Below, piece after piece: positions 4,935 through 61,631 of a stretch of 64,000 nucleotides of DNA (the stretch's first letter is position 1; each line of letters opens with the position of its first letter). The stretch is from the sequence record NC_054931.1. One strand, written 5' to 3'. The translations under genes and the position numbers were made by a program. The stretch is from Escherichia phage T2. The notes under the pieces were generated by a model. That model was not told the DNA's origin, did not search any database, and was given only the letters and a program-made list of their open reading frames with translations.

Positions 4935-6500
4935 ATGACTATCAAAACTAAAGCTGAACTTTTGAACAAATGGAAGCCATTACTGGAAGGTGAAGGTTTA
5001 CCGGAAATTGCTAATAGCAAACAAGCGATTATCGCTAAAATCTTTGAAAACCAGGAAAAAGATTTCCAGACAGCTCCGGAATATAAAGACGAAAAAATTG
5101 CTCAGGCATTCGGTTCTTTCTTAACAGAAGCTGAAATCGGTGGTGACCACGGTTACAATGCTACCAACATCGCTGCAGGTCAGACTTCTGGCGCAGTAAC
5201 TCAGATTGGCCCAGCTGTTATGGGTATGGTACGTCGTGCTATTCCTAACCTGATTGCTTTCGATATTTGTGGTGTTCAGCCGATGAACAGCCCGACTGGC
5301 CAGGTATTCGCACTGCGCGCAGTATACGGTAAAGACCCGGTCGCTTCTGGTGCTAAAGAAGCATTCCACCCAATGTATGGTCCAGATGCAATGTTCTCTG
5401 GTCAGGGTGCTGCTAAGAAATTCGCTGCTTTGAAAGCAAGTGATACTCTTGAAGTCGGAACTATTTACACTCACTTCTTCCAGGAAACTGGTACTGTATA
5501 TCTGCAAGCTACAGAAGTTAAACAAATCGATGTCGGTGCTAGTGATGCAGCTAAATTAGATGCTGAAATTAAGAAACAAATGGAAGCTGGTGTACTGGTA
5601 GAAATCGCTGAAGGTATGGCTACTTCTATCGCTGAACTTCAGGAAGGTTTCAATGGTTCTACCGATAACCCATGGAATGAAATGGGCTTCCGTATCGATA
5701 AGCAAGTTATCGAAGCTAAATCTCGCCAGCTGAAAGCTGCTTACTCTATTGAATTAGCACAAGACCTCCGCGCTGTTCACGGTATGGATGCTGATGCTGA
5801 ACTGTCTGGTATTCTGGCTACAGAAATTATGCTGGAAATCAACCGTGAAGTTGTTGATTGGATTAACTACTCAGCTCAGGTTGGTAAATCTGGTATGACC
5901 CTGACTCCAGGTTCTAAAGCTGGTGTATTTGACTTCCAGGACCCAATCGATATTCGTGGTGCTCGCTGGGCGGGTGAATCCTTTAAAGCTCTGTTGTTCC
6001 AGATTGACAAAGAAGCAGTTGAAATTGCTCGTCAGACCGGTCGTGGTGAAGGTAACTTCATTATCGCTTCCCGTAACGTAGTTAACGTTCTGGCTTCAGT
6101 TGATACCGGCATTTCTTATGCTGCACAGGGTCTGGCTACCGGCTTCAACACTGATACTACCAAGTCAGTATTTGCTGGTGTTCTGGGTGGTAAATACCGC
6201 GTATATATCGACCAGTATGCTAAACAGGATTATTTCACTGTAGGTTATAAAGGTCCGAACGAAATGGATGCTGGTATTTACTATGCTCCATATGTAGCTC
6301 TGACTCCGCTGCGTGGTTCCGATCCGAAGAACTTCCAACCGGTAATGGGATTCAAAACTCGTTACGGTATCGGTATCAACCCATTTGCAGAATCCGCTGC
6401 TCAGGCTCCGGCTTCTCGCATCCAGAGCGGTATGCCTTCTATTCTGAATAGCCTTGGTAAAAACGCTTACTTTAGACGTGTATATGTTAAAGGTATCTAA
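4935..6500 (+). CDS. 23: major capsid protein
   Basis: 521 aa ORF; N-terminus MTIKTKAELLNKWKPLLEGEGLPEIANSKQ recognisable as T4 gp23. Confidence 0.98.
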   Translation: MTIKTKAELLNKWKPLLEGEGLPEIANSKQAIIAKIFENQEKDFQTAPEYKDEKIAQAFGSFLTEAEIGGDHGYNATNIAAGQTSGAVTQIGPAVMGMVRRAIPNLIAFDICGVQPMNSPTGQVFALRAVYGKDPVASGAKEAFHPMYGPDAMFSGQGAAKKFAALKASDTLEVGTIYTHFFQETGTVYLQATEVKQIDVGASDAAKLDAEIKKQMEAGVLVEIAEGMATSIAELQEGFNGSTDNPWNEMGFRIDKQVIEAKSRQLKAAYSIELAQDLRAVHGMDADAELSGILATEIMLEINREVVDWINYSAQVGKSGMTLTPGSKAGVFDFQDPIDIRGARWAGESFKALLFQIDKEAVEIARQTGRGEGNFIIASRNVVNVLASVDTGISYAAQGLATGFNTDTTKSVFAGVLGGKYRVYIDQYAKQDYFTVGYKGPNEMDAGIYYAPYVALTPLRGSDPKNFQPVMGFKTRYGIGINPFAESAAQAPASRIQSGMPSILNSLGKNAYFRRVYVKGI

Positions 6501-6511
6501 TCTTTGACGAT

Positions 6512-6545
6512 TTAAGGGACCTTCGGGTCCCTTTAGTTGTTTTTA
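6512..6545 (+). terminator. rho-independent terminator after gene 23
   Basis: Hairpin GGGACC-TTCG-GGTCCC followed by a T-rich run. Confidence 0.65.
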
Positions 6546-6548
6546 TGG

Positions 6549-6556
6549 TATAAATA
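6549..6556 (+). promoter_or_regulatory. T4-type late promoter motif TATAAATA (upstream of 24)
   Basis: Exact motif in the 23-24 intergenic region after the gene 23 terminator. Confidence 0.55.
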
Positions 6557-6583
6557 AATCATATAAACCAAAAGGAAAGCGCA

Positions 6584-7867
6584 ATGGCTAAAATCAACGA
6601 ACTTCTGCGCGAATCAACCACAACGAATAGCAACTCAATCGGTCGCCCAAATCTCGTTGCTTTGACTCGCGCTACCACTAAATTAATATATTCTGACATT
6701 GTAGCAACGCAAAGAACTAATCAACCTGTTGCTGCTTTTTATGGTATCAAATACCTTAACCCAGACAACGAATTTACATTTAAAACTGGTGCTACTTATG
6801 CTGGCGAAGCTGGATATGTAGACCGAGAACAAATCACAGAATTAACAGAAGAGTCTAAATTAACTCTCAATAAAGGCGATTTATTCAAATATAATAATAT
6901 CGTTTATAAAGTATTAGAAGATACACCATTTGCTGATATTGAAGAAAGCGACTTAGAGCTGGCTCTTCAGATTGCAATTGTTCTTTTAAAGGTTCGTCTA
7001 TTTTCTGACGCAGCGTCAACAAGCAAATTTGAAAGCTCTGATAGTGAAATTGCGGATGCTAGATTCCAGATTAATAAATGGCAAACCGCGGTTAAATCTC
7101 GTAAACTTAAAACTGGCATCACAGTTGAATTAGCGCAAGATTTAGAAGCAAATGGATTCGATGCTCCTAATTTCTTGGAAGATTTGCTTGCAACTGAAAT
7201 GGCAGATGAAATCAATAAAGATATTCTGCAATCTTTGATTACAGTGTCAAAACGCTATAAAGTTACAGGAATTACTGATAGTGGATTCATCGATTTGAGT
7301 TATGCGTCTGCACCTGAAGCTGGTCGTTCATTATACCGAATGGTATGTGAAATTGTTTCGCATATCCAAAAAGAATCAACTTATACAGCAACGTTCTGTG
7401 TTGCTTCTGCTCGTGCCGCTGCGATTCTTGCTGCATCAGGTTGGTTAAAACATAAACCAGAAGATGACAAATATCTTTCACAAAATGCCTACGGGTTATT
7501 AGCTAATGGTTTACCGCTTTATTGCGATACTAACAGCCCATTAGATTATGTAATCGTTGGTGTAGTAGAAAATATCGGTGAAAAAGAAATTGTTGGATCA
7601 ATTTTCTATGCTCCGTATACAGAAGGTCTCGACTTAGATGACCCTGAACATGTAGGCGCATTTAAAGTTGTTGTTGATCCAGAAAGCTTACAACCGTCTA
7701 TCAGTTTATTAGTTAGATATGCTTTATCAGCAAATCCTTATACCGTAGCAAAAGATGAAAAAGAAGCAAGAGTAATTGATGGTGGAGACATGGATAAAAT
7801 GGCGGGTCGTTCAGATTTGTCTGTTTTATTAGGTGTTAAATTACCAAAAATTATTATTGATGAATAA
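6584..7867 (+). CDS. 24: capsid vertex protein
   Basis: 427 aa ORF, gp23 paralog in the expected position; late promoter motif upstream. Confidence 0.95.
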   Translation: MAKINELLRESTTTNSNSIGRPNLVALTRATTKLIYSDIVATQRTNQPVAAFYGIKYLNPDNEFTFKTGATYAGEAGYVDREQITELTEESKLTLNKGDLFKYNNIVYKVLEDTPFADIEESDLELALQIAIVLLKVRLFSDAASTSKFESSDSEIADARFQINKWQTAVKSRKLKTGITVELAQDLEANGFDAPNFLEDLLATEMADEINKDILQSLITVSKRYKVTGITDSGFIDLSYASAPEAGRSLYRMVCEIVSHIQKESTYTATFCVASARAAAILAASGWLKHKPEDDKYLSQNAYGLLANGLPLYCDTNSPLDYVIVGVVENIGEKEIVGSIFYAPYTEGLDLDDPEHVGAFKVVVDPESLQPSISLLVRYALSANPYTVAKDEKEARVIDGGDMDKMAGRSDLSVLLGVKLPKIIIDE

Positions 7868-7897
7868 AACAAAGGGACCGAAAGGTCCCTTTTTATT
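7868..7897. terminator. bidirectional hairpin terminator between 24 and rnlB
   Basis: AAAGGGACC-GAAA-GGTCCCTTTTT, flanked by A-run and T-run. Confidence 0.6.
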
Positions 7898-8897
7898 TAG
7901 CTCACCAACTCAATCCAAGCTGGACGAAGTACATCTTACCATTTTAACTAATTCCTTTTTAATCAAAGAAGGATTATCTGCTTGAGTTAGAGTAATACCT
8001 TCACGAGAAGTTTCTTCCAAAATATCTTGAACAGTTAGCCCCATCACCTTTCCAAAATCCTTTGGACCAATTTCGCCAATTTTAGAAATAACGTTATTTA
8101 CACGGTTCAGTGTAACGTAACAAGCTAAAATTCCCACCAATTTGTTATCAGCTTCTGATAGTTCAACTTTAGCTTTAATAGGCTTATCAGACTTTTTCTT
8201 TTCACTAAATTTGGAATTCTTGCATTTAATTGCTACACGATTTCCATTATGAAGCCAAGAAGGATAACAAGGTTTCAATACATATCCTTCAGCAGTAAAT
8301 ACTTCGCCTTTTGCTTCGGCATTCCAAACGCATTTATTTGCATCAACTAATCCAGCATGGTCTACTGTAAAATTATAATCTTGGACGACAGAATCTAAAT
8401 CATTTGGCAATTTAATAAGCTCTTCAAATTTACCGCGACCTAAAAGTGGAGCAATTTTAAATTTAAATGTATTACAGAATGATTCCATCATATAATCATC
8501 AACATAAGTCACATCACCACTTTCTGTAGTGACAATAATGTCAAATACATAAAAATCTTTATCGCCATAATCAACATTCTTCTGAATGCCAGGTCCAGCG
8601 AATTCGCCAAAGACTTGATAAGATACAACCGCTGAGGTTTCCATAATATCTTGTACTGCTTTAATGGAATCAGCGTAATTCTTTAGAATAATTTCATACC
8701 CAAAGAAATCTTCAGCAGGAAGAATCGGTCCAGTACGTTTAGCACAAGTTACTTTATCACGCTCAATAATCAATGAGAAATTTGTGCCGTGAATCTTTTC
8801 ACGAGCTACCCATTCGCCGCCAGTCAATCCCAAGCTGTAAAGTTTTTCAATAAATTTAGAGTTGTAATGATTTTCAAGACTGCTACTTTTTAAACAT
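7897..8897 (-). pseudogene. rnlB: RNA ligase 2, interrupted by two apparent frameshifts
   Basis: ORF 7910..8833 carries the ligase core (EKIHGTN lysine motif) but opens at TTG; the ATG with a good RBS at about 8897 reads MFKK then stops; the C-terminal [12 protein letters not shown] is in another frame ending about 7897. Confidence 0.7.
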
Positions 8898-8906
8898 AAT
8901 TAATCC

Positions 8907-9182
8907 TCAAAATGTAATTTCTAACCAATCACCATCACGCTGATCACTATTGACTTTAAAATTAAATCCTTCTTTTCTCAGCCAATCACCAATTTCTTCA
9001 GTAATCAATTTATCGCGAGCAGTATAATAACTAAAATATGTTTTACCTTGTTCAGCTGCTTTATTAGCAAGTTCCGAAAAATCTTTAATAAAACACTCTA
9101 GCTTAAACTGTTTACTTTTTAATGCTTTTTCGCGTAATTGATTAGCAAAAGATTCATTTTCATAAAGTTCATACTGTTCCAT
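8907..9182 (-). CDS. hypothetical protein (T4 24.2/24.3 region)
   Basis: 91 aa ORF with AAGGTGA RBS; overlaps the upstream ORF by 14 nt. Confidence 0.6.
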   Translation of the reverse strand: MEQYELYENESFANQLREKALKSKQFKLECFIKDFSELANKAAEQGKTYFSYYTARDKLITEEIGDWLRKEGFNFKVNSDQRDGDWLEITF

Positions 9183-9384
9183 TTTTCACCTTTTTATTGA
9201 TATGTCTTTTTCTATAGACAACTTTTTCTCGAGTTTCAAATTTATTCTTAGCAGTCATAGCTCGAGCCCATAATACAGCCACTTCTTTTGCATGTAAGTT
9301 TAATTCACGAGCAATTTCAATGAATGACTTTCCAGACTCATGAAGAGTAAACACCACAACCTCAGTTCTCATATTCAATCTCAT
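9169..9384 (-). CDS. hypothetical small protein, possible helix-turn-helix
   Basis: 71 aa ORF; segment SFIEIARELNLHAKEVAVLWAR resembles an HTH; weak RBS. Confidence 0.5.
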   Translation of the reverse strand: MRLNMRTEVVVFTLHESGKSFIEIARELNLHAKEVAVLWARAMTAKNKFETREKVVYRKRHINKKVKNGTV

Positions 9385-9473
9385 GTTATCGAGTTGGTGC
9401 CATTATATACATCATTTTCTGATTGTGTTTTGTGTGCTTTCAAAATGAAGAAAGGGGCCGAAGCCCCTTATGA

Positions 9474-10590
9474 TTATGGATAGGTATAGATGATACCAGT
9501 TTCTAAAGCAGTTTTATGAATGATGTATCCATTACGCGATTCTTGGACATCAACTTCTGGATAGTCTTTCATCATCTTCTGAAGAGTGTAACGATGCAGG
9601 TAGTATTTACTCTGGATCTTCAGTTTTCCAATCTTTACCTTCTTCAGTCATTTTTTGGATTTCATCCATAACCCACCAACCGCACCAGATGTAAGCTGAA
9701 GTACGATGTGGAAGAGGATGAACATAAGGTAATTCACCTTCTGGTTCTGGAGCAACTTTATCAGTTACCTGAACTTGACCTGTTGTTTTAACTGTTTTGC
9801 TATCATAATCAGTAGCAGTAACGACGGCAGTCACTTCAATAGTTTGACTTCCAACAGATGAAGTATCAACGGTATATACATTAGTTGACCCTTCTACAGG
9901 AGAAGAATCTTTCTTCCATGAATAAGTAATTTGCGCTTCTTCTGGAGCATCAGTAACATTAGCAGTAAATGTAGCCGAAGCATCTTGTTGAACGTTAATA
10001 GAAGGAGGAGTCAATGTAACCTGTGGATTCATTGTCTTCTTATTAACCGTTAATGACACTTCATTAGAAGTAACGCTTAGTGCATCATAATCTGTCGCGG
10101 TTACTTGAGCTACACACTTGATTTTTTAACTCCACTTGTAGTTGGAGTATAGCTAAATGTAGAGTTAGTTTCTCCACCAACTTGTGAATCATCTACATAC
10201 CACTGATACGTAGCAGATGCTCCATCAGGTTGAGAAGCTAAGGCAGCAGTAAATTGAACTGGGGTTCCGATTACTCCAGCGTCAGGGCTATTAGGAGTTA
10301 CAGCTAAGGTGGTCGTTTGTGTCTTATTTTGAACTGTGATAGTTGTAGTAGCTTCTGCTGTTTCAGCTTCAGCTTCTGGAATTGTATTTGTTGCAACTAC
10401 TTTAATAGTCTTTTGACCGGCAGGTATAACTAAAAGTTGCTTCAGCTCCATCTTGTGGAACATTATCTACGCTCCAAGCATAGGTAATAGTTCCACCTTC
10501 AGTTTGACCACTGGGTGCAGCAGTAAACTGCTTGGTTTCATCAATAACCCCTGTCGGTGTTTTAGGAGTTATATCAACTGTAAAAGTCAT
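9474..10590 (-). pseudogene. hoc: outer capsid protein Hoc, interrupted by at least three frameshifts
   Basis: Three track ORFs (10402..10590, 10110..10463, 9607..10059) in different frames together encode the Ig-like Hoc domains; the capsid-binding C-terminus (YYLHRYTLQKMMKDYPEVDVQESRNGYIIHKTALETGIIYTYP) is in a further frame below 9607. Confidence 0.75.
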
Positions 10591-10599
10591 AAGTTATCC

Positions 10600-11280
10600 T
10601 TATTTTAATGTTACGAAAGAAGAATTGCGTGTTTCACGAATTAAAACTGATCCGTCGCGGTTAATGTAATAAATTAAGCTAAATAAAGTTTGGTGTGCTG
10701 ACGCATGTTCAAAACTAGTTGGGTGAGATTTCCAATCCGGAGTTTCAGCAATCCATTGATAAATCCACCAAGGAACAGTGCAGAATCCTGGATTTTTTCC
10801 AATCAGCTGAAGATTCGGACTAAAGTTTTCCGGAAGAGTAAATACAGACGGCTTTTCAGATTCAATAATCTCAGCTACAGCTTGTTCAAACTTTTCTTCA
10901 ACAAAAGGAGTATCTTCAATCAAAACATCGGTATTTTCAGGAATTTTATCCGTTTCTACTACTTCAATTTTAATGTCAGATTTAACCGGAGAATCAATCA
11001 GAAGTGCTGCTTCTGGATTGACTTCTTCATCGTCATATTTTAATCCCTCTGCGGCATCAGCAGCATCAATTAAGTCTTTAATAGATAACCCATCAGTCTC
11101 TGGCATAGGTTCACTAGCGAGCTTCTGGAGGGCTTCTTCAATATCAACAACGATATTATCAAAAGATTTATTCTTTTTGACCTTTATACCAAACTGTTCA
11201 GCATATTCAGCTAATTTAGCTTTAGCTTCTTTGTTATCATCAAGAGCCTTCAGCTCTGCAATATAATCTTTATCTATCAT
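10600..11280 (-). CDS. inh: inhibitor of prohead protease
   Basis: 226 aa ORF, size and position as T4 inh, next to hoc. Confidence 0.8.
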   Translation of the reverse strand: MIDKDYIAELKALDDNKEAKAKLAEYAEQFGIKVKKNKSFDNIVVDIEEALQKLASEPMPETDGLSIKDLIDAADAAEGLKYDDEEVNPEAALLIDSPVKSDIKIEVVETDKIPENTDVLIEDTPFVEEKFEQAVAEIIESEKPSVFTLPENFSPNLQLIGKNPGFCTVPWWIYQWIAETPDWKSHPTSFEHASAHQTLFSLIYYINRDGSVLIRETRNSSFVTLK

Positions 11281-11330
11281 AATATTTCCTCAGTATAAAT
11301 ATAGATATATTTATTACATGGTATTTAGAC

Positions 11331-12842
11331 ATGACTGACATTAAAGTACATTTTTATGATTTTAGTCACGTGAGAATTGATTGTGAAGAAAGTACATTTC
11401 ATGAACTCCGTGATTTCTTTAGCTTTGAAGCTGATGGGTATCGTTTTAATCCGAAATACAAATATGGCCACTGGGATGGACGAATCCGTCTTTTAGATTA
11501 TAATCGTCTTCTTCCATTCGGCTTAGTCGGGCAAATTAAAAAGTTCTGTGATAATTTTGGCTATAAAGCCTGGATTGACCCACAAATTAACGAAAAAGAA
11601 GAATTATCAAGAAAAGATTTTGATGAATGGCTTTCTAAATTAGAAATCTATTCAGGAAATAAAAGAATCGAACCACACTGGTATCAAAAAGATGCAGTGT
11701 TCGAAGGATTAGTTAATCGTCGTAGAATTCTTAATCTTCCAACATCTGCAGGTAAATCTTTAATTCAAGCTTTGCTTGCGCGATATTATTTGGAAAATTA
11801 TGAAGGTAAAATTCTTATCATTGTTCCAACAACTGCTTTAACAACTCAGATGGCTGATGACTTTGTTGACTATCGTTTATTCAGTCATGCAATGATAAAG
11901 AAAATTGGTGGCGGAGCATCAAAAGATGATAAATATAAAAATGATGCACCAGTCGTTGTTGGTACATGGCAAACTGTAGTTAAACAACCGAAAGAATGGT
12001 TCTCACAGTTTGGAATGATGATGAATGATGAATGCCATCTTGCTACAGGAAAAAGTATTTCATCTATCATATCAGGTTTAAATAACTGCATGTTCAAATT
12101 CGGTTTGTCTGGTTCATTACGTGATGGCAAAGCTAATATCATGCAGTATGTTGGAATGTTTGGTGAAATATTTAAGCCAGTAACGACTTCTAAATTAATG
12201 GAAGATGGACAAGTAACTGAGCTAAAAATTAATAGTATTTTTCTTCGCTATCCAGATGAGTTCACTACTAAATTAAAGGGAAAAACTTACCAAGAAGAAA
12301 TAAAAATTATTACTGGGCTCAGTAAAAGAAATAAATGGATCGCTAAATTAGCTATTAAGCTTGCGCAAAAAGATGAAAACGCTTTTGTCATGTTTAAACA
12401 TGTATCGCATGGTAAAGCTATTTTCGATTTAATTAAAAATGAATACGATAAAGTTTATTACGTATCAGGGGAAGTTGATACCGAAACCCGCAATATAATG
12501 AAAACCTTAGCTGAAAATGGTAAAGGAATAATTATAGTAGCTAGTTATGGTGTATTTTCTACTGGTATTTCAGTTAAAAATCTGCATCACGTTGTTTTAG
12601 CGCACGGTGTTAAATCAAAAATCATTGTATTACAAACAATCGGTCGTGTATTACGTAAGCATGGTTCTAAGACAATAGCAACCGTCTGGGACCTCATAGA
12701 TGATTGTGGTGTTAAGCCAAAATCTGCTAATACGAAAAAGAAATATGTTCATTTGAACTATCTTTTAAAACACGGCATTGATCGTATTCAGCGCTACGCA
12801 GATGAAAAATTTAATTACGTAATGAAAACAGTTAATTTATAA
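11331..12842 (+). CDS. uvsW: UvsW SF2 DNA helicase
   Basis: 503 aa ORF; Walker A LPTSAGKS and DECH box; size as T4 UvsW. Confidence 0.95.
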   Translation: MTDIKVHFYDFSHVRIDCEESTFHELRDFFSFEADGYRFNPKYKYGHWDGRIRLLDYNRLLPFGLVGQIKKFCDNFGYKAWIDPQINEKEELSRKDFDEWLSKLEIYSGNKRIEPHWYQKDAVFEGLVNRRRILNLPTSAGKSLIQALLARYYLENYEGKILIIVPTTALTTQMADDFVDYRLFSHAMIKKIGGGASKDDKYKNDAPVVVGTWQTVVKQPKEWFSQFGMMMNDECHLATGKSISSIISGLNNCMFKFGLSGSLRDGKANIMQYVGMFGEIFKPVTTSKLMEDGQVTELKINSIFLRYPDEFTTKLKGKTYQEEIKIITGLSKRNKWIAKLAIKLAQKDENAFVMFKHVSHGKAIFDLIKNEYDKVYYVSGEVDTETRNIMKTLAENGKGIIIVASYGVFSTGISVKNLHHVVLAHGVKSKIIVLQTIGRVLRKHGSKTIATVWDLIDDCGVKPKSANTKKKYVHLNYLLKHGIDRIQRYADEKFNYVMKTVNL

Positions 12843-21745: not shown

Positions 21746-23803
21746 CTACATTTTGAACTTTTTAGACATTCCGTTGATGTTAACCAAAGAAGCTAATATT
21801 TGAGAAACTTCGTTTTCCTCTTCTTTTGATTCTTCTACAAGGAATTGATTAAATCCAGCCATTGGACGAACTTCACCAGTTTCCATTAAATGGTCTCCAT
21901 CATATACTGATTCTTCTAATTGTTCAGAAGGAGGAACGATTGTACCTTCGATTAGATACTTGTTATAAGCAGTTTCTTTCATAAAGTACGTACTTACTTT
22001 ATTAATCTTCAGTAAAATTCCACGCGGTAGAATAACTTCAGCTTCTGATGGAAATCCTGATAAATGACCTGGAACGATAACTTTGATTCGCTCAGCTCCT
22101 TTAATTACCATACCCACGCTAGTTTCAGCATCTTCATTAGCATATGTAGAATGACTACCCATATGCATCAAATCTTCTGCATCAACGGAACCTTCTCCTT
22201 CTCCAGAAAATACTGCACCGGAATCATCTAGAGCCATATAGTTTTTACCATGCTCGCCAAAGATATTTGGTTTAAGTGATGTCGATACGAAGTTCTTGAA
22301 ATAGAACATTTTGTTTTCAATGTTGTGACGCAAAGTTTTAAAGGTAACTTCTTGTCCGCGATAAAGCGTAGTTCCTGGAGGAAGAACTGAACCTTTAGCG
22401 AATGCAGAATCCAACGTCTCGATGTGCTTAATAGCACGTTCCATATATTCTTCACGGGTAGAATCTGGTTTACCCAAAAGGAACGAGTTCATTTCAACAT
22501 ATGAATCTGCACAATAATCTTCAATTACATCAGACTCAGCCTGAGTCAGTCCTTTTGGAGTTACTTCAGTGCTTGCATATTCATATGCCTGGGCAGCAGA
22601 TTCATTAATCAATTTATAAATGCCATTCATGACAAATTGAATAATAACTGTCTTTTCATCTGGCGTAGCTTTAGAACCTTTAACCAAATCATTGATAATT
22701 TTCTTAATAACATCAAAGCTATTAGAAATATTAATATCAGCAAGATCACTTAAAATTTTATCAGTTTTATAATCAAAGAATTCTTTATTCTTTAAATATT
22801 CTTGAGAACCTTGATATGTTATATCGCTCTGTAACTTGATAGATGGATCACGTAAACGTGCATGGGCTAATGCAATATGATTTCGGAAGTTTTCTAGTTC
22901 ATAATCGCTAGATTTAAAACGAGAAGCACTTCTCATACCACCGATAGCTCCTTTGCTGAAGTTTGAACCAATCTGAATAACGCCAGAGTTCATTGGTCCT
23001 TCTGCTTTATATACCGGAACTTTAGATTCAAACTCTTGATATTTCTTGGCAGCGAAGCTATCACCCTGAAGTGAAGCATCGACAGTAGAATATTGAGCTT
23101 GTGCTGCTAATCGACGACTAATTTTAGTTTTCTGAATAACCGCTTGGTCAGTACGTTTATCATTTTCTAAAGCAATAGAAGCAGCAACAGCGACAGCTTT
23201 AGGAACAGCATCACCTGTTTTAACATCTACATAAACATCACCGACCTTCGATTCAACTTTTGCGAATAACTCAGTTGAAATAGGAGGTACACCTGGAATG
23301 TCTTCTAAATTGGCATTTTTACGGTAAACCATAATATATGCATACTTTTTATCATAGTCCCAGATTTCCTTTAAAAGAACATATCGACCTGCTCCTTTAG
23401 TACGTACTAAACGGTCAGCAATAACTTGCATTTGACGAGCTGCGCCATTTGTTTTACTTTTTAGTACGCGGAATAAGCATGCGTCGATTTTATACTGTTT
23501 CATTGTTTGAAGAGCAGTATCAAAAACAGCATTAATGACGCCAATTGGATTTCCACCCAAGTTTCTAAGCTTAACCAGCGATAATTTCTCGTTGACACCT
23601 ATCATTACGATATGCATCATTTTATCGCCTGGCTTAACGTTTTTATTTGTATCACCACCAGAGGTGTATGTACAAAATCTAAATCCAGGAAGCACGCTTT
23701 CTTCGCCGGCTTGAATAGCAAAAATTTGTGGTATTTTATGCTTAGGATTTAAGTTAACAACCGGCGCCGAAGCGCCGTCAAATAATTCTGTAATAAGTTC
23801 CAT
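21746..23803 (-). CDS. Alt-family mono-ADP-ribosyltransferase paralog
   Basis: 685 aa ORF; N-terminus MELITELFD...NLNPK shared with the neighbouring gene; C-terminal R / STS / EAEVILPRG motifs typical of R-S-E ADP-ribosyltransferases. Confidence 0.8.
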   Translation of the reverse strand: MELITELFDGASAPVVNLNPKHKIPQIFAIQAGEESVLPGFRFCTYTSGGDTNKNVKPGDKMMHIVMIGVNEKLSLVKLRNLGGNPIGVINAVFDTALQTMKQYKIDACLFRVLKSKTNGAARQMQVIADRLVRTKGAGRYVLLKEIWDYDKKYAYIMVYRKNANLEDIPGVPPISTELFAKVESKVGDVYVDVKTGDAVPKAVAVAASIALENDKRTDQAVIQKTKISRRLAAQAQYSTVDASLQGDSFAAKKYQEFESKVPVYKAEGPMNSGVIQIGSNFSKGAIGGMRSASRFKSSDYELENFRNHIALAHARLRDPSIKLQSDITYQGSQEYLKNKEFFDYKTDKILSDLADINISNSFDVIKKIINDLVKGSKATPDEKTVIIQFVMNGIYKLINESAAQAYEYASTEVTPKGLTQAESDVIEDYCADSYVEMNSFLLGKPDSTREEYMERAIKHIETLDSAFAKGSVLPPGTTLYRGQEVTFKTLRHNIENKMFYFKNFVSTSLKPNIFGEHGKNYMALDDSGAVFSGEGEGSVDAEDLMHMGSHSTYANEDAETSVGMVIKGAERIKVIVPGHLSGFPSEAEVILPRGILLKINKVSTYFMKETAYNKYLIEGTIVPPSEQLEESVYDGDHLMETGEVRPMAGFNQFLVEESKEEENEVSQILASLVNINGMSKKFKM

Positions 23804-23806
23804 GAT

Positions 23807-25903
23807 TTATCCTTGAACGAACTTGTAAGGCATGTTTGTAATATCTATGCAAGACGCAATAATTCCGAGAGATGATTCTACTTTCTGTTTAACATTTGAT
23901 GAAACAAATGATGCAAAGTCAACTCTGTCTTCTATTTCAATATCACCTGTCATTGCAACTACTTCGCCGGTTTCCATTAAACGGTCTCCGTCATAGATTA
24001 CCGATTCGGTGAGTTCTTCTGTGGTCATAACTTCAGCTTGAATGAGTTTTGTATTATTAGACGTGGTTCCGTCATTATTAGAAGCATCAGTTATTTTATT
24101 AACTTTGACCATCAATCCGCGCGGTAGAATAACTTCAGCTTCTGTTGCTATTCCGAGACTTCCTGGATATACAACATTAACTTTATGAGCTCCATCAATT
24201 GCCCATCCTATTTGAACTTTAACGTATTCAGGATTTTCTTTATACGCTCTTATTTCGTTTGGATTAATAGTTATTCCTTCTTCATTTTTATCAACTGTTA
24301 ATTCATTGCGAGCTTCTGGTTCTAAAAGACCAATACCAGCATGTGTAATTCCAAAACGTCCAAAAATGATAGGAGTTAAAGAAGTAGATACAAAATTTCT
24401 GAAATAGAACACTTTATTTTTAACTAGCGCTTCGTATATAGGAGCAGTCATACTTTGAGCACGATAAACTGTAATGCCTTCCGGTATGCGGTCACCATTT
24501 TCAAAAGCTGAATCTAAATTATTTATAGCAGATTCAATTTCTTTTTCACTCATTACATCATATCGTTCTGGATTGTAACGACCTAAAAGAAGATTATTAA
24601 TGTCTGTATATCCTGAACCACAATACTCTCTAATACCGCGCTTTTGTGATGGTGTATATTTAGAACCATCACAAGCAATAGTAATATCAATCATTGGACC
24701 AGCACCAATTCCAGAAAAACTATAAATCATTCGTTTGAGGAATTTAGTTTTTGCTGCATTCCAGGCATTTTTAGTTATTTCTCCCCAGACTTCATCTGGC
24801 TGCCCTTTACGAGTTTTATTATGTTTATCAAGCCAATTATCTTTATATTCTTCAAAGAATTGATTGACAGCTGCCGCGTATTTCTCTAAACATTTTATTG
24901 AAGTAGTTGGTTCATTTTTAATCGCGTTAAAAATTACATCTTTAATTTTTTCAGAAACTTCATCAACCTCACTTTTTGAAAAGAATTTATAGTCATAGTG
25001 AAGTTCATTCGCAGTTCCTTCGGCAATAATTTTTGCTGCCTTTGTTTTAGAAGCTAATGAATTAATTCCAATTTTCATTTCTTCTGCTTCGGGAATTAAA
25101 GGAGCGGTAGCAGGCTTATTGAAATTAGCTGCGGTAGATTCATACTTCTGGAATAATTCACTTTCAAATCTAGAAGATTCCAATGATTGACTTTGCGCAA
25201 TTGCTCTACGGGAAATTTTAACTTTAACGATTACAGCTTGGTCAGTACGTTTATCATTTTCTTGTGCAATAGATGCTGCAATTGCCTCGTTTTTAGTTAC
25301 TTGAGCTCCAGTATCTTTATTGATATAAACATCACCGACCTTCGATTCAACTTTAGTAAAGAGCTCGGTACTAATTTCCGGAACTCCTGGAATGTCTTCT
25401 AGTGATACATTTTTGCGATGTATAAGAATATATGCATACTTTTTATCATAATCCCAGAGTTCCTTAAGAAGGACGTATCTGCCACCTGAACGACTACGGA
25501 TAAGTCTATCAGCAATAACTTGAATTTGTCGAGCTTGACCAGCAGTTTTAGACTTAAGAATACGAAGCATACAAGCATCAATTTTATACTGACGCATTGT
25601 TTGCATTGCAACAGTAAAAACTGAATTGATATAATTAATTGGGCTTGGACCAAGACCTTTTAATTTAGCAATTGAACCTTTAGCAGTTAATGTAAAAGGA
25701 ACAATATGCATCATTTTATCGCCCATTTTTAAATCGCGATTAGTATCACCTCCAGATGTATAGGTACATAAACGAAAGCCTGGTTGTTCAATTGCATCAT
25801 CAACATGAACTGAAAAAATTTGTGGTATTTTCTTCTTTGGATTTAAGTTTGTAATCGGAAGAGTAGTATCTTCGTCAAATAATTCTGTAATGAGTTCCAT
25901 CAT
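23807..25903 (-). CDS. alt: Alt mono-ADP-ribosyltransferase (packaged internal head protein in T4)
   Basis: 698 aa ORF next to ligase gene 30; ART motifs YRAQ, FVSTSL, TEAEVILPRG; N-terminal MELITE consistent with prohead-protease processing. Confidence 0.8.
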   Translation of the reverse strand: MMELITELFDEDTTLPITNLNPKKKIPQIFSVHVDDAIEQPGFRLCTYTSGGDTNRDLKMGDKMMHIVPFTLTAKGSIAKLKGLGPSPINYINSVFTVAMQTMRQYKIDACMLRILKSKTAGQARQIQVIADRLIRSRSGGRYVLLKELWDYDKKYAYILIHRKNVSLEDIPGVPEISTELFTKVESKVGDVYINKDTGAQVTKNEAIAASIAQENDKRTDQAVIVKVKISRRAIAQSQSLESSRFESELFQKYESTAANFNKPATAPLIPEAEEMKIGINSLASKTKAAKIIAEGTANELHYDYKFFSKSEVDEVSEKIKDVIFNAIKNEPTTSIKCLEKYAAAVNQFFEEYKDNWLDKHNKTRKGQPDEVWGEITKNAWNAAKTKFLKRMIYSFSGIGAGPMIDITIACDGSKYTPSQKRGIREYCGSGYTDINNLLLGRYNPERYDVMSEKEIESAINNLDSAFENGDRIPEGITVYRAQSMTAPIYEALVKNKVFYFRNFVSTSLTPIIFGRFGITHAGIGLLEPEARNELTVDKNEEGITINPNEIRAYKENPEYVKVQIGWAIDGAHKVNVVYPGSLGIATEAEVILPRGLMVKVNKITDASNNDGTTSNNTKLIQAEVMTTEELTESVIYDGDRLMETGEVVAMTGDIEIEDRVDFASFVSSNVKQKVESSLGIIASCIDITNMPYKFVQG

Positions 25904-29164: not shown

Positions 29165-29375
29165 CTTTAATACTTTATAATTTCAACATCCGCCCAATGA
29201 CCATAACTTGGCAGACGGTCTTCAATAGATAATCCACCATCATATTTAAGCATTTTAATTGTCATAATATGGCTCTAAATGGTCTTCTGTGAGCGTAGAA
29301 ACGTCAGTCACACGATAAGTAACTTCAACCATTTCCGTACCTAATAATTTCTGAATTAATTTCTTAAACATATTA

Positions 29376-37793: not shown

Positions 37794-38972
37794 TTAAAAA
37801 TATTTTTTAAAACTCATCATAACTTTATCATCAACATCATTATCAATCTGTGCAACAAGGTAAGATGACAGTTCTACTTCTTGTGGCGCGGATTGAACAT
37901 TATCAGAATTAAGATATTCACGAATCCAAGGATATGGATGTTTAACCGGAGCATCGGTAATTGGGCATGGAAGACCGCACTGTTTCATACGAGATACAGT
38001 TAAGTAATCAATAAAGCTCCACATGCTATTTGTATTTAGTCCGGGAACGTCTCCATCTTTAAATAAATGAACCGCCCAATCTTTTTCTTGGCGGTTAACT
38101 TCCATGAAAATATCAACTGCTTCTTGTTCACACTCTTTGGCAATTTTAACCCATTCATCACCATCAGTGCCAAGTTGAAGTTGACGAATAATATATTGTG
38201 TACCTTTAAGATGAAGCTGCTCATCACGTGCAATGAACTTCATAATCTTGGCATTACCTTCCATGATTTCCATGTTCTTATGGAAGTTAAAGGTACATGC
38301 AAAAGATACATAAAAACGAATAGCTTCCAATGCGTTGATTACGTGCAGGCAGAGGTAAAGAGAGCGCATTAGTTCACGTTTCCAATACATTTCATGCTCT
38401 ATGGCATCTTTAATATCATCTTCGTCTGCGTTAATTTCTTTTTTGTACTCAATATCAGCTTTAGCATTCTGCCAATATCTAGTTTTCTCAATAACATCAT
38501 CATAATAACGACCAATAGATTCAGCACGTTTCATGATAGCTTTATCTAATACAATCTCATCAAATACCTTTGATGGATCAGTATAAAGATTTCGCATAAT
38601 ATGAGTGTATGAACGACTGTGAATAGTTTCACTAAAAGTCCATGTAGCAACCCATGTATCAAGACTTGGGTCTGAAATTAACGACATAAGTACAGCAGAC
38701 GGTGCACGACCCTGAATGCTATCTAGAAGTGATTGATACTTCAGGTTATTAGTAAAAATATCTTGCTGATATTGAGGAAGCTTGTTAAATTGCGCAGCAT
38801 CCATCATTAAGTTTACTTCTTCAGGACGCCAGAAAAATGACAACTGCTTTTCGGTTAAATCTTCAAAAACTTTATGACGTTGAATATCATAACGCGCAAT
38901 ACCAAGACCTGAACCAAAAAACATAGGTTCTTTTAAAACATCAACTGGATTTGTATTAAAAACTGTGCTCAT
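37794..38972 (-). CDS. nrdB: ribonucleotide reductase small subunit, uninterrupted
   Basis: 392 aa continuous ORF, N-terminus as T4 NrdB; no intron. Confidence 0.95.
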   Translation of the reverse strand: MSTVFNTNPVDVLKEPMFFGSGLGIARYDIQRHKVFEDLTEKQLSFFWRPEEVNLMMDAAQFNKLPQYQQDIFTNNLKYQSLLDSIQGRAPSAVLMSLISDPSLDTWVATWTFSETIHSRSYTHIMRNLYTDPSKVFDEIVLDKAIMKRAESIGRYYDDVIEKTRYWQNAKADIEYKKEINADEDDIKDAIEHEMYWKRELMRSLYLCLHVINALEAIRFYVSFACTFNFHKNMEIMEGNAKIMKFIARDEQLHLKGTQYIIRQLQLGTDGDEWVKIAKECEQEAVDIFMEVNRQEKDWAVHLFKDGDVPGLNTNSMWSFIDYLTVSRMKQCGLPCPITDAPVKHPYPWIREYLNSDNVQSAPQEVELSSYLVAQIDNDVDDKVMMSFKKYF

Positions 38973-39023
38973 AAATTTTCCACTTAGTTAATAGATAGTG
39001 ACTCGTCCATGAGTCAAATTATA

Positions 39024-41845: not shown

Positions 41846-42706
41846 TTATACCGCCATCTTTCCTTTAATTGGCGGGTGAGATACATAGTTGTTAAGAACG
41901 AAATCTTTAGGCCTAAGTTTAAGAACATATTTTAATTGTTCTTTAGTAGAAAGATATCGGAATTTATAAGGTAGACCACTTATTACCAGCTCACAAAGCT
42001 CTTTAGGTTCACGACGCAAAATTTCTTTACATTGTTCTACGTGATTCATATAGATATGAGTATTACCGCCAGAAAATATCAAATCTCCAGGAATAAGATT
42101 ACACATCTTAGCTACAATATGAACTAACGCAGCATATGATGCAATATTAAATGGAAGACCAAGAAAAACATCTACTGATCGTTGATACCACTGCAAATCC
42201 AAATAGCCATTACGCACATTAAACTGATAGAACATATGACAAGGCGGTAATGCCATATATTTAAGTTCAGCTGGATTCCACGCAGAAACAATTTGTCGCC
42301 TATCATTCGGCAGTTTTTTAATACGATCAATAACTTCTACAATTTGGTCTACACCGCCAAAATCACGCCACTGTTTTCCATAAATTGGACCAAGTTCACC
42401 GCTATGGTATCCTAAATCTTTTGCTTGATTTTCGTAATTTTCATCCCAGACTGTTTTGCCTTGAATTAATGAATCATGCTGAATTAATCGTAAATCATTG
42501 ACATTTGTGCTTCCTGATAAAAACCAAAGTAGCTCAGCAATGCAAGCTTTCCAGGCGAGCTTTTTAGTTGTTACTGCAGGAAAACCTTTACTTAAATCCC
42601 AGCGTAATTTAGTACCGAACAAAGCAATTGTTCCTGTGCCTGTTCGATCATCGGTTTCATAGCCATTTTCAAAAATGTCTTTAATTAAATCTTGGTATTG
42701 TTTCAT
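41846..42706 (-). CDS. td: thymidylate synthase, uninterrupted
   Basis: 286 aa continuous ORF, size as T4 Td; no intron. Confidence 0.97.
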   Translation of the reverse strand: MKQYQDLIKDIFENGYETDDRTGTGTIALFGTKLRWDLSKGFPAVTTKKLAWKACIAELLWFLSGSTNVNDLRLIQHDSLIQGKTVWDENYENQAKDLGYHSGELGPIYGKQWRDFGGVDQIVEVIDRIKKLPNDRRQIVSAWNPAELKYMALPPCHMFYQFNVRNGYLDLQWYQRSVDVFLGLPFNIASYAALVHIVAKMCNLIPGDLIFSGGNTHIYMNHVEQCKEILRREPKELCELVISGLPYKFRYLSTKEQLKYVLKLRPKDFVLNNYVSHPPIKGKMAV

Positions 42707-45944: not shown

Positions 45945-46010
45945 TTTTATTTCCTTTTTAATTTAATTAACAGTTGGTGCTATGACGATGTATGACCTCA
46001 TAGCTGGTCA
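45945..46010 (-). promoter_or_regulatory. gene 32 translational operator (pseudoknot plus A/U-rich tract)
   Basis: Leader reads UGACC-AGCUAUGA-GGUCA-UACAUCG-UCAUAGC, then an A/U-rich unstructured stretch up to the ATG. Confidence 0.7.
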
Positions 46011-46043
46011 GTGAGATAATTATAATCTATTTATAATAAGCAA

Positions 46044-46697
46044 TTAATACTTGCAAGATTTCACAGTTTCAATGAAAACATTTTTAGCTTTCTGTGAATC
46101 AATATTTAAAATTTTTCTATAAGCCTTTAACTTTATAGAATAATTATTCCAGACTAAATTATCAGTCTGTTCATCGTGTTTATCAATTATATTTAAAAAC
46201 GAATCAAGCAAGATAAACGTTTCAAACGAAATTATATTCGACTGAAGCAGTTTAAAAATATAACTTGATTGAACCTTTGGATTATATTCAAAGATTTCTT
46301 TAAAAGCAGAAACTTCAACTTTTTTACTAAAATAATAAATGTTGCGAATATCTTCTTCAAACTTAAATTTAATTTGCTTTAAGCGTCCGATATATTCACG
46401 ATAAAACACAAGTGCATCAGCGTCAGAGATGTCACCAATCCAAGCATCTTGGTTAGCAACCAAATTACTTATAAAAATTAAAGCAAGTTCCTTTAATTTA
46501 TATTTTTCTGATAACTTCTGGAAAAAATACTTATCCCTTCGCTTTTGATAAGCGGCATCAGACACCCGCATGCACCAATTATACTTAATAACATCATACT
46601 TTCCATTCATATGCTGTTTTATCATTAAGTATAATTTATAAACTGATTTACCATCAATGTATCTTTCACCACCAGCAGGCATGCGGAATTTAATCAT
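46044..46697 (-). CDS. 59: helicase loader
   Basis: 217 aa ORF, size and position as T4 gp59. Confidence 0.93.
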   Translation of the reverse strand: MIKFRMPAGGERYIDGKSVYKLYLMIKQHMNGKYDVIKYNWCMRVSDAAYQKRRDKYFFQKLSEKYKLKELALIFISNLVANQDAWIGDISDADALVFYREYIGRLKQIKFKFEEDIRNIYYFSKKVEVSAFKEIFEYNPKVQSSYIFKLLQSNIISFETFILLDSFLNIIDKHDEQTDNLVWNNYSIKLKAYRKILNIDSQKAKNVFIETVKSCKY

Positions 46698-59858: not shown

Positions 59859-60005
59859 TTAGTTGACTTTGTTAATATCATCAGACGCTTGATTTGTAAA
59901 CTGGTCTGTGTTATTTTCTTCAAAAATTTTTTCTACGAATTCCTTGAACGACTCACGTTCCTGAGCTACATTGTGCTCGATTACATTTTCAAGATTATGA
60001 CTCAT
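59859..60005 (-). CDS. small acidic protein (about 48 aa)
   Basis: Hand-translated ORF whose ATG overlaps the arn stop (ATGA); coordinates approximate. Confidence 0.35.
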   Translation of the reverse strand: MSHNLENVIEHNVAQERESFKEFVEKIFEENNTDQFTNQASDDINKVN

Positions 60006-61323: not shown

Positions 61324-61631
61324 TTAAACCATCCTTTAATACGTTGCCACAAAGTTTTCTGCTGAGCTTTGTTGACACCAATTGAACGAATAACTGGTTG
61401 AGATTCCTGGAATTCTTTATAATCGGCAAGGTAAATTTCGTAAGCTGCATCCGTAAATGAACTTATCGCTGCCATAAAATTATTGCGAATACCTACTGGA
61501 GCATCTTTACTTTCACGAATAATCATGTATTTACCAGTCTTAATCTTTACAATAGTTCCAAGATAAGCTATGGTACCAAATATCCCAACCCTCTTGAGTA
61601 GGTTCTGCACAACGACGAAGTTCATTAACAA
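61320..61631 (-). CDS. hypothetical protein (start uncertain, possible frame break)
   Basis: 103 aa track ORF with a non-ATG start; a 35 aa ORF with a strong RBS overlaps its 5' end in another frame. Confidence 0.4.

Follow-up and report, generated by a model that had tools for sequence, protein, structure and literature searches.

Does the stretch of phage T2 DNA that runs from rnlB to hoc hold genes that have really been lost, and if so how recently and by what process, or do its many frameshifts reflect a faulty sequence or an unusual mode of expression? The stretch lies within a window of 64,000 nucleotides from Escherichia phage T2 (NC_054931.1), whose positions 7000-11500 are 100% identical to five T2-type records. 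Positions 7860-10620 were aligned with PhiZZ6, RB18 and T4, relatives in which the genes are intact, by means of MAFFT, which places deletions with an ambiguity of 1-2 nt. Six sites were found at which T2 alone carries a deletion. A first-pass annotation, made from the letters of the window, had counted at least five indels in rnlB and hoc, mostly small deletions; the alignment gives exactly five frameshifts, five out of five being deletions. The limits it had set for the block are also correct, since 7897-7899 is the ancestral stop codon of rnlB and 10588-10590 the ATG of hoc. Both genes were identified by synteny with the annotated hoc and rnlB of T4, RB18 and PhiZZ6 and by their Pfam domains. 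Of the two small genes in between, both on the minus strand, gene 24.2 (8907..9182) is intact, with 91 aa and an in-frame 3-bp deletion at 9023|9024 in the MAFFT alignment, and gene 24.3 (9169..9354) is intact as well.

The RNA ligase 2 gene, rnlB or gene 24.1 (7897..8897, minus strand; native ATG at 8895-8897), carries two 2-bp deletions on that strand. One, at 8883|8884, takes TA out of TATA and creates a stop at codon 5, so that translation from the native ATG gives MFKK and ends. The other (TG or GT, at 7936|7937) falls at codon ~322 of 334 in the MAFFT alignment and swaps the final 12 residues, which now read RCTSSSLD. Residues 4-322 of the T4/RB18 RnlB protein (334 aa) are recovered by tblastn in a single frame with 98.4% identity. 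The longest ORF left, 7910-8833, has 307 aa and a TTG start; it matches RNA_ligase PF09414 (E = 4e-23) and T4_Rnl2_C PF18043 (E = 1.5e-23) and contains REKIHGTNF, with the motif I lysine of KxxG. An Rnl2-type ligase is thus still recognizable by its nucleotidyltransferase domain with KxxG and by its C-terminal domain, whereas a complete 334-aa ORF from the conserved start is no longer found. Compared with T4 Rnl2 (NP_049790), T2 retains the two Pfam domains as well as KIHG, the adenylylation motif, but its two deletions uncouple the native start and alter the C-terminus. Synthesis of the catalytic body would depend on inefficient re-initiation at the TTG and would leave out 27 N-terminal residues. 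Because the native start leads to MFKK and a stop, because re-initiation at the TTG is inefficient and because the last 12 residues are replaced, rnlB of T2 is most likely null. GenBank records of T2 type present rnlB as an ordinary 307-aa CDS, and the SV76 record presents it as two short CDS.

The gene for the capsid decoration protein, hoc, occupies 9474..10590 on the minus strand (ancestral stop at 9474-9476) and is broken into ORF pieces at 10402-10590, 10110-10463, 9607-10059 and 9474-9575; tblastn recovers it only as several HSPs in different frames. The alignment with MAFFT places three deletions on that strand: 11 bp at 10425|10426 (codon ~55), which is the first disabling lesion that a ribosome meets, 1 bp at 10123|10124 (codon ~159) and 2 bp, TA or AT, at 9610|9611 (codon ~331 of 376). 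Translation from the native ATG gives 55 native residues and then seven others (TCRSKDY) before a stop, and the deletion at codon ~331 cuts off the final ~45 residues, which we take to be part of the capsid-binding domain. In Pfam, the fragment 10110-10463 contains a PKD domain (PF00801, E = 4.5e-6, above the cut-off) and the fragment 9607-10059 gives weak matches to Ig_3 and I-set. Two marks of the Hoc family are therefore present, namely tandem Ig-like/PKD domains and a gene with 24.3 on one side and inh on the other, opposite in strand to gene 24, an order shared with T4, RB18 and PhiZZ6; the single ORF of ~376 aa that should link the Ig domains with the C-terminal one is interrupted by the three frameshifts. 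T4 Hoc (NP_049793) is encoded at the same locus and on the same strand, and T2 shares ~91-92% amino-acid identity with it over the longest single-frame stretch and retains PKD/Ig remnants, but carries the 11-, 1- and 2-bp deletions. As far as the sequence can tell, hoc of T2 is a pseudogene of the Hoc family and not a functional member. With the 11-bp deletion followed by two more frameshifts on its 3' side, no product with the C-terminal region should be made, and since none is possible, T2 capsids would be without Hoc. In T4-type heads, Hoc sits on the capsid at one copy per hexameric capsomer. Ishii and Yanagida, in 1975-77, are said to have observed just such Hoc-less T2 capsids. A review states that Hoc is absent from T2 (PMC8396182), and our search of the literature for an account of these lesions in hoc and rnlB yielded only this statement. 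In T2 GenBank records, three 'Hoc-like' fragments are annotated.

Comparison with the available records shows that the lesions, so far as these records represent the group, are confined to T2, hundreds of relatives being without them, and are young next to T2's divergence. The rnlB codon-5 junction is found exactly in 6 T2-type records only, while in 488 others the 71 nt around it are the same and the 2 bases are there; for a deletion in arn.4, described below, the junction is exact only in the 6 T2-type records out of 184, and the 178 others have identical flanks and the 2 bases. Neither IMG/VR nor the JGI metagenomes contained the codon-5 junction, the undeleted rnlB sequence used as control having 4 hits in IMG/VR, and IMG/VR did not contain the hoc 11-bp junction either. 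A closer intact hoc allele, which would help in dating the lesions, was sought among 655 matching phage records without success: the allele that comes next stands at ~93%, and no non-T2 record exceeds a ~93% match to the T2 hoc region. The T2-specific substitutions also bear on age. There are 9 synonymous and 2 non-synonymous ones in hoc, a ratio typical of a gene under selection, and one of each kind in rnlB, and neither gene has in-frame stops once its frame is restored. If hoc had been neutral over the whole T2 branch, ~32 non-synonymous changes would be expected, and the observed counts depart from neutrality with P = 4.5e-5. This implies that hoc would have been a pseudogene for less than ~10-15% of the T2 branch, a fraction above 15% being excluded at P ~0.02. 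The dN/dS near 1 and the in-frame stops of a long-decaying pseudogene are not seen. To estimate a recent indel-to-substitution ratio, stretches of T2 with 99.5% identity or more to RB18 or T4 were used, but the block is outside these, which makes the ratio uninformative.

It had been claimed that all detectable frameshifts are in this one block. This does not hold, since T2-specific lesions occur elsewhere in the window and outside it. On the minus strand, a T2-specific 2-bp deletion at 59874..59876 (~59875) alters the last residues of asiA.1, and another at 61569..61571 (~61570) divides arn.4 in its long form (109 aa); the window also contains a fragmented 30.4 (29167-29371) and an intergenic loss of 2 nt at ~33156. 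Outside the window, nrdC.2, RB32ORF097c, mobD.1 and vs.8 are listed as split in the T2 record. The net restoration of frame by several hits (nrdC.2, -6; ORF097c, -3; mobD.1, -3) was considered, but chance could account for it, and the T2 annotators still list split ORFs. Private small deletions are present in at least 10 named dispensable ORFs over the whole T2 genome, and at least 13 polarised T2-private deletions of 2 bp fall in such ORFs, often several per gene. All the polarised indels whose length is not a multiple of three are outside the 70 kb that we class as essential. The earlier statement that core genes are intact was borne out: with 192 RB18/T4 proteins as tblastn queries, each essential gene of the window is covered in one frame. 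The same search reveals no frameshift in the window in alt, pseT, rnlA, cd, nrdA/B, td, frd and denA, all presumably non-essential in T4. Since many non-essential genes of the window are unhit, dispensability alone is no predictor of where the hits fall.

Within the window, the indels are nevertheless concentrated beyond chance, as had been suspected: 5 of the 7 coding frameshifts lie in 2.7 kb out of ~31.7 kb of non-essential DNA, with a binomial P = 8e-5 that applies to a block named beforehand. At the scale of the genome, the region at 53.8-54.8 kb of T2 matches the block in lesion density, and a genome-wide scan gives the block a P of 0.02 when only polarised hits are used and of 0.2 with all hits. 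The nearest-neighbour distance of the hits has a median of 338 bp, which is tighter than uniform scatter over non-essential DNA (P = 0.0015). By this genome-wide count, the rnlB-hoc block is a local peak of a general pattern and is not unique.

We put at about 80% the probability that both genes of the block are real accessory genes that were inactivated recently in the T2 lineage. The pattern as a whole is best read as a lineage that has recently been losing accessory genes not under selection, with an unexplained bias toward 2-bp deletions feeding the process. The small deletions private to T2, the majority exactly 2 bp long, are found in many dispensable ORFs and in no essential gene. The lesions of the block would persist if, as seems probable, neither rnlB nor hoc is needed on laboratory E. 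coli and selection against their loss is relaxed or absent; and a gene already inactivated could take more hits at no cost, which could account for several hits per gene. One of the two explanations offered in the first-pass annotation was that selection is relaxed on dispensable genes, in a lineage possibly adapted to the laboratory; it fits best, but three corrections are needed. It is not special to the block, given the ten or more named ORFs hit across the genome; it cannot mean long-term decay, which is contradicted by the 9:2 ratio of synonymous to non-synonymous changes in hoc; and it fails by itself to explain the excess of 2-bp deletions, which make up 9 of the 19 isolated indels specific to T2 vs 3 of 35 in RB18 and T4 (Fisher P = 0.002).

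The case has a parallel in microbes that are bottlenecked or propagated in the laboratory, whose genes decay into pseudogenes through small deletions under relaxed selection. It shares with them the loss of accessory genes, the deletion bias and the sparing of essential genes; it differs in that T2 has no substitution signature of relaxed selection and in that the indels are mostly exactly 2 bp. Another parallel is T4 HAP1, a fully viable laboratory variant of T4 whose hoc gene has a nonsense mutation (PMC8396182). In both, Hoc was lost in a laboratory-lineage phage through a point lesion, but HAP1 has one nonsense mutation, whereas T2 has three frameshift deletions and many lesions in other accessory genes. 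The feature is thus known biology of an ordinary class, lineage-private pseudogenes in a long-propagated laboratory phage, and not a new system. For annotation, rnlB of T2 should be flagged as a pseudogene and the three 'Hoc-like' CDS treated as pieces of one dead gene. As a 'wild-type' comparator to T4, T2 would be naturally Hoc-null and very probably Rnl2-null, and it bears lesions in many small accessory ORFs as well, including ac, arn.4, vs.8 and nrdC.2; uses affected are studies of capsid decoration, mucus adherence, immunogenicity and RNA repair, and defence-system screens.

One loose end has wider interest, namely the excess and clustering of the 2-bp deletions. Two observations run counter to simple neutral decay: five deletions against 3 non-synonymous T2-specific substitutions in hoc and rnlB together is indel-heavy, and the hits are more clustered than a uniform scatter over non-essential DNA would make them. 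A tentative explanation, which complements gene loss and which we hold to be possible though well short of probable, is an episode of frameshift-specific mutagenesis that produced small deletions and few substitutions, kept where they were tolerated; candidates are an acridine or another intercalating agent, and breaks that were rejoined or repaired with errors, and the rnlB-hoc block would be one cluster among several. The 2-bp excess itself is in its favour, with 13 T2-private deletions polarised by at least two outgroups and ~7 more by one, as are the several hits per gene (3 deletions each in hoc and nrdC.2, 2 each in rnlB and vs.8), their spatial clustering and the want of a matching excess of substitutions. 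From the site contexts, the deleted dinucleotide is AT or TA in about half of the cases, and about a third to half of the sites are within short dinucleotide or mononucleotide repeats. The acridine-resistance gene ac has a T2-private nonsense mutation, with TAA in place of TCA at codon 11. The differences between T2 stocks of today are ordinary, being substitutions and one homopolymer slip; since no 2-bp deletion is among them, the process that made the lesions seems not to be ongoing. On the other hand, the frameshifts that acridines induce in T4 are for the most part of the -1 kind or short duplications rather than -2. Inspection by eye of the 19 sites of 2-bp deletion revealed no shared motif beyond AT-richness and the AT/TA preference, the stop in ac may be one more neutral loss, and a patchy distribution of truly neutral DNA could also yield clustering. 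We know of no historical record of the standard T2 stock being mutagenised.

If such an episode did occur, T2, one of the founding model phages, may bear the scar of a distinct process that removes exactly 2 bp with few accompanying substitutions: at least 13, perhaps ~20, private 2-bp deletions in spatial clusters, and ten or more accessory genes silenced (hoc, rnlB, nrdC.2, nrdC.7, ORF097c, mobD.1, vs.4, vs.8, asiA.1, arn.4 and others). The cause could be a past intercalating mutagen, as hinted by the ac nonsense mutation, or error-prone processing of DNA breaks, and the 'wild-type' T2 in use since the 1940s would then be a multiply mutated derivative. Scars of cuts by GIY-YIG homing endonucleases, which leave 2-nt 3' overhangs, were also thought of, but this is speculation without supporting evidence; segD and segE, which flank the block in T4, are missing from T2 as judged by tblastn.

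Another possibility, which we regard as improbable, is that hoc, rnlB and the other ORFs were inactivated under positive selection, for faster growth or for escape from defences or antibodies. That the lesions are fixed in all T2 stocks would agree with this, and so would the high immunogenicity of Hoc (PMC8396182) and the ease with which host defences select loss-of-function alleles of agt in T2 (bioRxiv 10.1101/2025.10.21.683753). But a single hit suffices for an adaptive loss, so that three in hoc and two in rnlB are rather what is predicted by neutrality after the first hit, and some lesions are mild, such as those that alter the last residues of asiA.1 or the C-terminus of rnlB.

It is less likely again, indeed very unlikely, that hoc and rnlB are ancient pseudogenes which have decayed under relaxed selection through most of T2's divergence from the other T-evens. 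Several disabling lesions per gene, and a hoc only ~93% identical to its nearest non-T2 allele, might suggest great age. However, two non-synonymous changes against nine synonymous ones in hoc, and no stops, are far from the ~32 non-synonymous changes expected, and the flanks of the rnlB and arn.4 deletions are identical to those of hundreds of phages.

Still more doubtful is that the genes remain expressed by ribosomal frameshifting or re-initiation, for example through a slip of tRNA-Lys on A AAA AAG. In rnlB, which now begins ATG TTT AAA AAG TAG, an A-run at codons 3-4 directly precedes the new stop, and a +1 or -2 slip on it would regain the ligase frame. The sequence A AAA AAG is shift-prone in E. 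coli, but it is known for -1 slips, which would give the wrong frame here, and the lesion destroys Tyr5, which we assume to be required for Rnl2 activity. The arrangement exists in no relative and so is not a conserved recoding site, and hoc would require three separate events, one of them over the 11-bp deletion. Neither a conserved shift site nor a long reversible repeat, as in programmed frameshifting or contingency loci, was found: none of the five lesions is within a homopolymer of 6 bases or more, and two are in dinucleotide repeats no longer than TATA. Contingency loci of phages, such as agt, vary by +/-1 slips in adenine runs (~9 nt for agt) that revert at high rate (bioRxiv 10.1101/2025.10.21.683753). 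The contingency loci of T2 and T4 resemble the block in the inactivation of non-essential T2 genes by frameshift, but the lesions of the block are outside adenine tracts and there are several per gene, so that simple reversion cannot restore hoc or rnlB.

The other explanation first offered, a sequencing, assembly or consensus artefact limited to the block, is the least credible of all and can be rejected: although the clustering of indels had raised the suspicion and GenBank annotators call rnlB a normal CDS, separately deposited T2-type records (six across hoc, five across the whole block) agree base for base while differing elsewhere, 2- and 11-bp deletions outside homopolymers are judged atypical of platform errors, and Hoc is reportedly absent from T2 (PMC8396182). 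This comparison of sister isolates, which had been proposed as a check, finds the same block in separately deposited sequences of the same organism, and on the evidence of the deposited records it shows that the lesions are genuine and fixed in every sequenced T2 stock. Outside the block, the other T2-type records differ from the window by 1-3 changes per 14-25 kb segment, as estimated from bit scores; over 39 kb, the window and MH751506 are set apart by 3 substitutions and a single A7/A6 indel.

The deletions of T2 are real, private, recent and inactivating, and they are confined to dispensable genes. Alignment of window positions 7860-10620 with the homologous stretch of the relatives PhiZZ6, RB18 and T4, in which the annotated rnlB (RNA ligase 2; 1005 nt) and hoc (capsid decoration protein Hoc; 1131 nt) are all intact, revealed T2-only deletions in minus-strand genes. 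Two of them, each of 2 bp, affect rnlB: the one at 7936|7937 (codon ~322) alters the last 12 residues, and with the other, at 8883|8884 (codon 5), the native start reads ATG TTT AAA AAG TAG, i.e. MFKK*. In hoc, 2 bp are lost at 9610|9611 (codon ~331), 1 bp at 10123|10124 (codon ~159) and 11 bp at 10425|10426 (codon ~55), and translation from the native ATG runs through 55 native residues and ends in TCRSKDY*. A 3-bp deletion at 9023|9024 removes one codon, in frame, from gene 24.2. The first-pass annotation, made from the sequence alone, had announced five or more indels, chiefly small deletions, between 7897 and 10590; there are exactly five frameshifts, all of them deletions. Both limits are exact: the A of hoc's ATG is at 10590, and the ancestral stop of rnlB has its first base at 7897. 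According to Pfam, the surviving 307-aa rnlB ORF contains the RNA_ligase and T4_Rnl2_C domains and the hoc pieces contain PKD and Ig remnants. In T2, the empty sites of segD and segE flank the hoc-rnlB block. T2 and all relatives carry a conserved GC-rich hairpin just downstream of hoc (9453-9470), GGGGCCGAAGCCCC with T's behind it; it is probably a terminator common to them, and RB18 shows a 1-nt difference immediately after it.

In a megablast search, window 7000-11500 matched five T2-type records (MH751506, AP018813, PV648363, PV648364 and 'SV76' OM339528) along its entire length at 100% identity, and the closest phage after these reached 96.4%; hoc is also identical in a sixth T2 record, PV958097. 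This identifies the window as phage T2. These are separate submissions, with E. coli B, K-12 and BW25113 as hosts and coming from Japan, the USA and France; hoc is identical in 6/6 and the whole block in five. Differences elsewhere in the genome indicate that they are not copies of one another. Between 25001 and 64000, the window differs from MH751506 (coordinate = window position + 95,997) by three substitutions (C/T, T/C and C/A) and one A7/A6 run, the latter in the motA-motA.1 spacer, at 28678, 37104, 62115 and 62390; each other T2 record has 1-3 differences from the window per 14-25 kb segment, as judged by bit scores. The window is byte-identical to no public T2 record. The localised assembly or consensus problem initially envisaged was therefore rejected: separate records concur on lesions common to T2-type phages that differ elsewhere, and Hoc is absent from T2 according to a review (PMC8396182).

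The lesions are also restricted to T2. With 71-nt queries that had the rnlB codon-5 deletion or the arn.4 deletion (see below) at their midpoint, exact matches came from the six T2-type records only; a further 488 and 178 phage records, respectively, aligned at 97.3%, i.e. with identical flanks but the two bases present. The hoc 11-bp junction had no match in IMG/VR and the rnlB junction none in IMG/VR or the JGI metagenomes, the undeleted rnlB form being present in IMG/VR. T2-specific substitutions, at sites with a single state shared by the outgroups, were read in the restored frame: 9 are synonymous and 2 non-synonymous in hoc (pN/pS 0.06), rnlB has 1 of each, and the restored frames of T2 hoc and rnlB contain no in-frame stop. 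The essential neighbours show the same synonymous:non-synonymous pattern (12:4 for gp24, 27:10 for gp23). Neutrality predicts ∼78% non-synonymous changes (P = 4.5e-5 for the hoc counts), and a hoc pseudogene phase exceeding ∼15% of the T2 branch is excluded (P ∼0.02). T2 hoc and rnlB are functional-looking alleles that acquired their deletions recently, rather than long-decayed genes.

The 192 annotated RB18 and T4 CDS covering the window were translated and compared with it by tblastn. Every essential gene was covered end to end in one frame, as had been claimed for the core genes: 19-24, 25-29, 48, 51, 54, 30, 31, 32, 59, 33, 34-36, and likewise t, asiA, motA and 52, as well as nrdA, rnlA, pseT and others. 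Besides hoc and rnlB, the flags raised were mosaic divergence (gp37/38, frd.2, 30.4/30.5), absent mobile elements (segD, segE, segG, mobE, I-TevI, I-TevIII) and peculiarities of T4 as a reference (fused uvsW, short alt.-1/-2). Two other genes carry a T2-specific 2-bp deletion: asiA.1 at ~59875 (59874-59876), where the C-terminus DDIITKSTN* becomes DDINKVN*, and arn.4 at ~61570 (61569-61571), where the 109-aa form is split, leaving a 68-aa C-terminal ORF, a form also used by T4 because its upstream ATG is ATA. Two further 2-bp deletions lie at ~33156, in the cd.2/cd.3 spacer (intergenic, against both RB18 and T4), and at ~34734, at the start of RB32ORF217c (against RB18 only, in a divergent region). 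In the T2 annotation, 30.4 (29167-29371) is broken into two pieces ('matches fragment in phage LZ'), and neither 30.5 nor 30.8 is present; the 30.4 region may be one more accessory segment that has decayed or been replaced. The initial proposal that all detectable frameshifts cluster in the block is thus too strong even for the window itself, asiA.1 and arn.4 being hit and 30.4 fragmented, but 5/7 coding frameshifts do fall in these 2.7 kb out of ∼31.7 kb of non-essential window DNA, which is far from uniform (P = 8e-5).

Whole T2, RB18 and T4 genomes were assembled from fetched loci, and indels of one genome against both others were counted when isolated in well-aligned sequence. Two-bp deletions represent 9/19 of such private indels in T2, 2/10 in RB18 and 1/25 in T4, i.e. 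9/19 versus 3/35 (Fisher P = 0.002). With PhiZZ6 added as third outgroup for T2 43-64 kb, and the intergenic site against RB18 and T4 also counted, 13 2-bp deletions were placed on the T2 branch by at least two outgroups (T2 coordinates 45249, 45291, 49403, 54017, 60831, 61955, 62200, 103935, 104883, 105609, 129153, 155872 and 157567) and about 7 more by one. The T2-private indels span MH751506 coordinates 4657-157567. The genes hit by 2-bp deletions are nrdC.2 (three in 113 bp), nrdC.7, RB32ORF097c, mobD.1, vs.4, vs.8 (two), rnlB (two), hoc, asiA.1 and arn.4; ORF097c and mobD.1 have one -2 and one -1 apiece, and one-base deletions occur in nrdC.4, gene 5.1 and hoc. The MH751506 annotation already gives N- and C-terminal fragments for nrdC.2, ORF097c, mobD.1 and vs.8. 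No polarised indel of a length other than a multiple of three lies inside the 70 kb that we take, from T4 genetics, to be essential. When the other 94 kb were scanned, the five hits within 2.7 kb gave P = 0.02 for the polarised set and P = 0.2 with single-outgroup hits included, since T2 53.8-54.8 kb matches the block in density; hits of this type are clustered overall (median nearest-neighbour distance 338 bp, P = 0.0015).

The relaxed selection on a dispensable block suggested by the first-pass annotation, for a real and correctly located finding, is only partly correct as an interpretation. We propose that hoc, rnlB and the other affected genes would be unneeded under the conditions of T2 propagation, so that lesions would not be purged; once the first had arrived, a gene would become a free target, which could account for the multi-hit genes. 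Another, rather unlikely, possibility is that an episodic frameshift-specific process hit T2, with an intercalating mutagen or error-prone break processing as candidates. It would fit four features that relaxed selection does not by itself explain: an input rich in exact 2-bp deletions, the scarcity of accompanying substitutions, the clustering, and the ordinary look of present-day differences between T2 stocks, but direct evidence for it was not found. A suggestive point is a nonsense codon, private to T2, in ac, the acridine-resistance gene that lies just beyond the end of the window (codon 11, TCA to TAA; MH751506 ~160150-160185). The 80-nt haplotype with this codon occurs in the six T2-type records only; T6 and others are one base away, presumably with the sense codon TCA as in RB18 and T4, and on its genotype T2 should be ac-minus. 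Against the mutagen, however, the classical acridine spectrum in T4 consists mainly of -1 and short duplications. Less probable still are recoding of rnlB at its A AAA AAG run, formally possible but requiring an unusual +1 or -2 slip on an arrangement conserved in no relative, and adaptive loss, which has no need of several hits per gene.

Part of this is already known: T2 sequences are public, T2 without Hoc is in the literature and reportedly traced to Ishii and Yanagida in the 1970s, three 'Hoc-like' fragments are annotated in two of the T2 records inspected, and accessory genes are known to be lost through small deletions. The doubly frameshifted rnlB, annotated as a normal CDS, and the genome-wide signature of private 2-bp deletions seem to be undescribed in the literature searched. 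The finding is of modest interest, its main use being caution over annotation and strain background.

In the window, T2 lacks all of T4's homing-endonuclease genes and introns (segD, segE, segG, mobE, and I-TevI and I-TevIII together with their introns in td and nrdB), the empty sites being at 6500-6584, 11280-11331, ~38000-39000, ~41850-42700 and ~45950-46050; segD is retained in RB18. At 21755-25900, T2 carries a pair of full-length alt paralogues of ~685 aa (alt, alt.-2), as does RB18; in T4 nothing but short remnants (alt.-1, alt.-2) is left, so that the decayed copy here is T4's. Outside the window, denV (endonuclease V) is missing between vs.8 and the internal-protein gene (MH751506 61947-62436, compared with T4 64939-65355); it is also missing in RB18 and present in PhiZZ6, and its absence fits the classically higher UV sensitivity of T2. 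The Soc homologue of T2 (85 aa, MH751506 13952-14209) has an intact frame, with a middle and C-terminus divergent from those of T4 and RB18.
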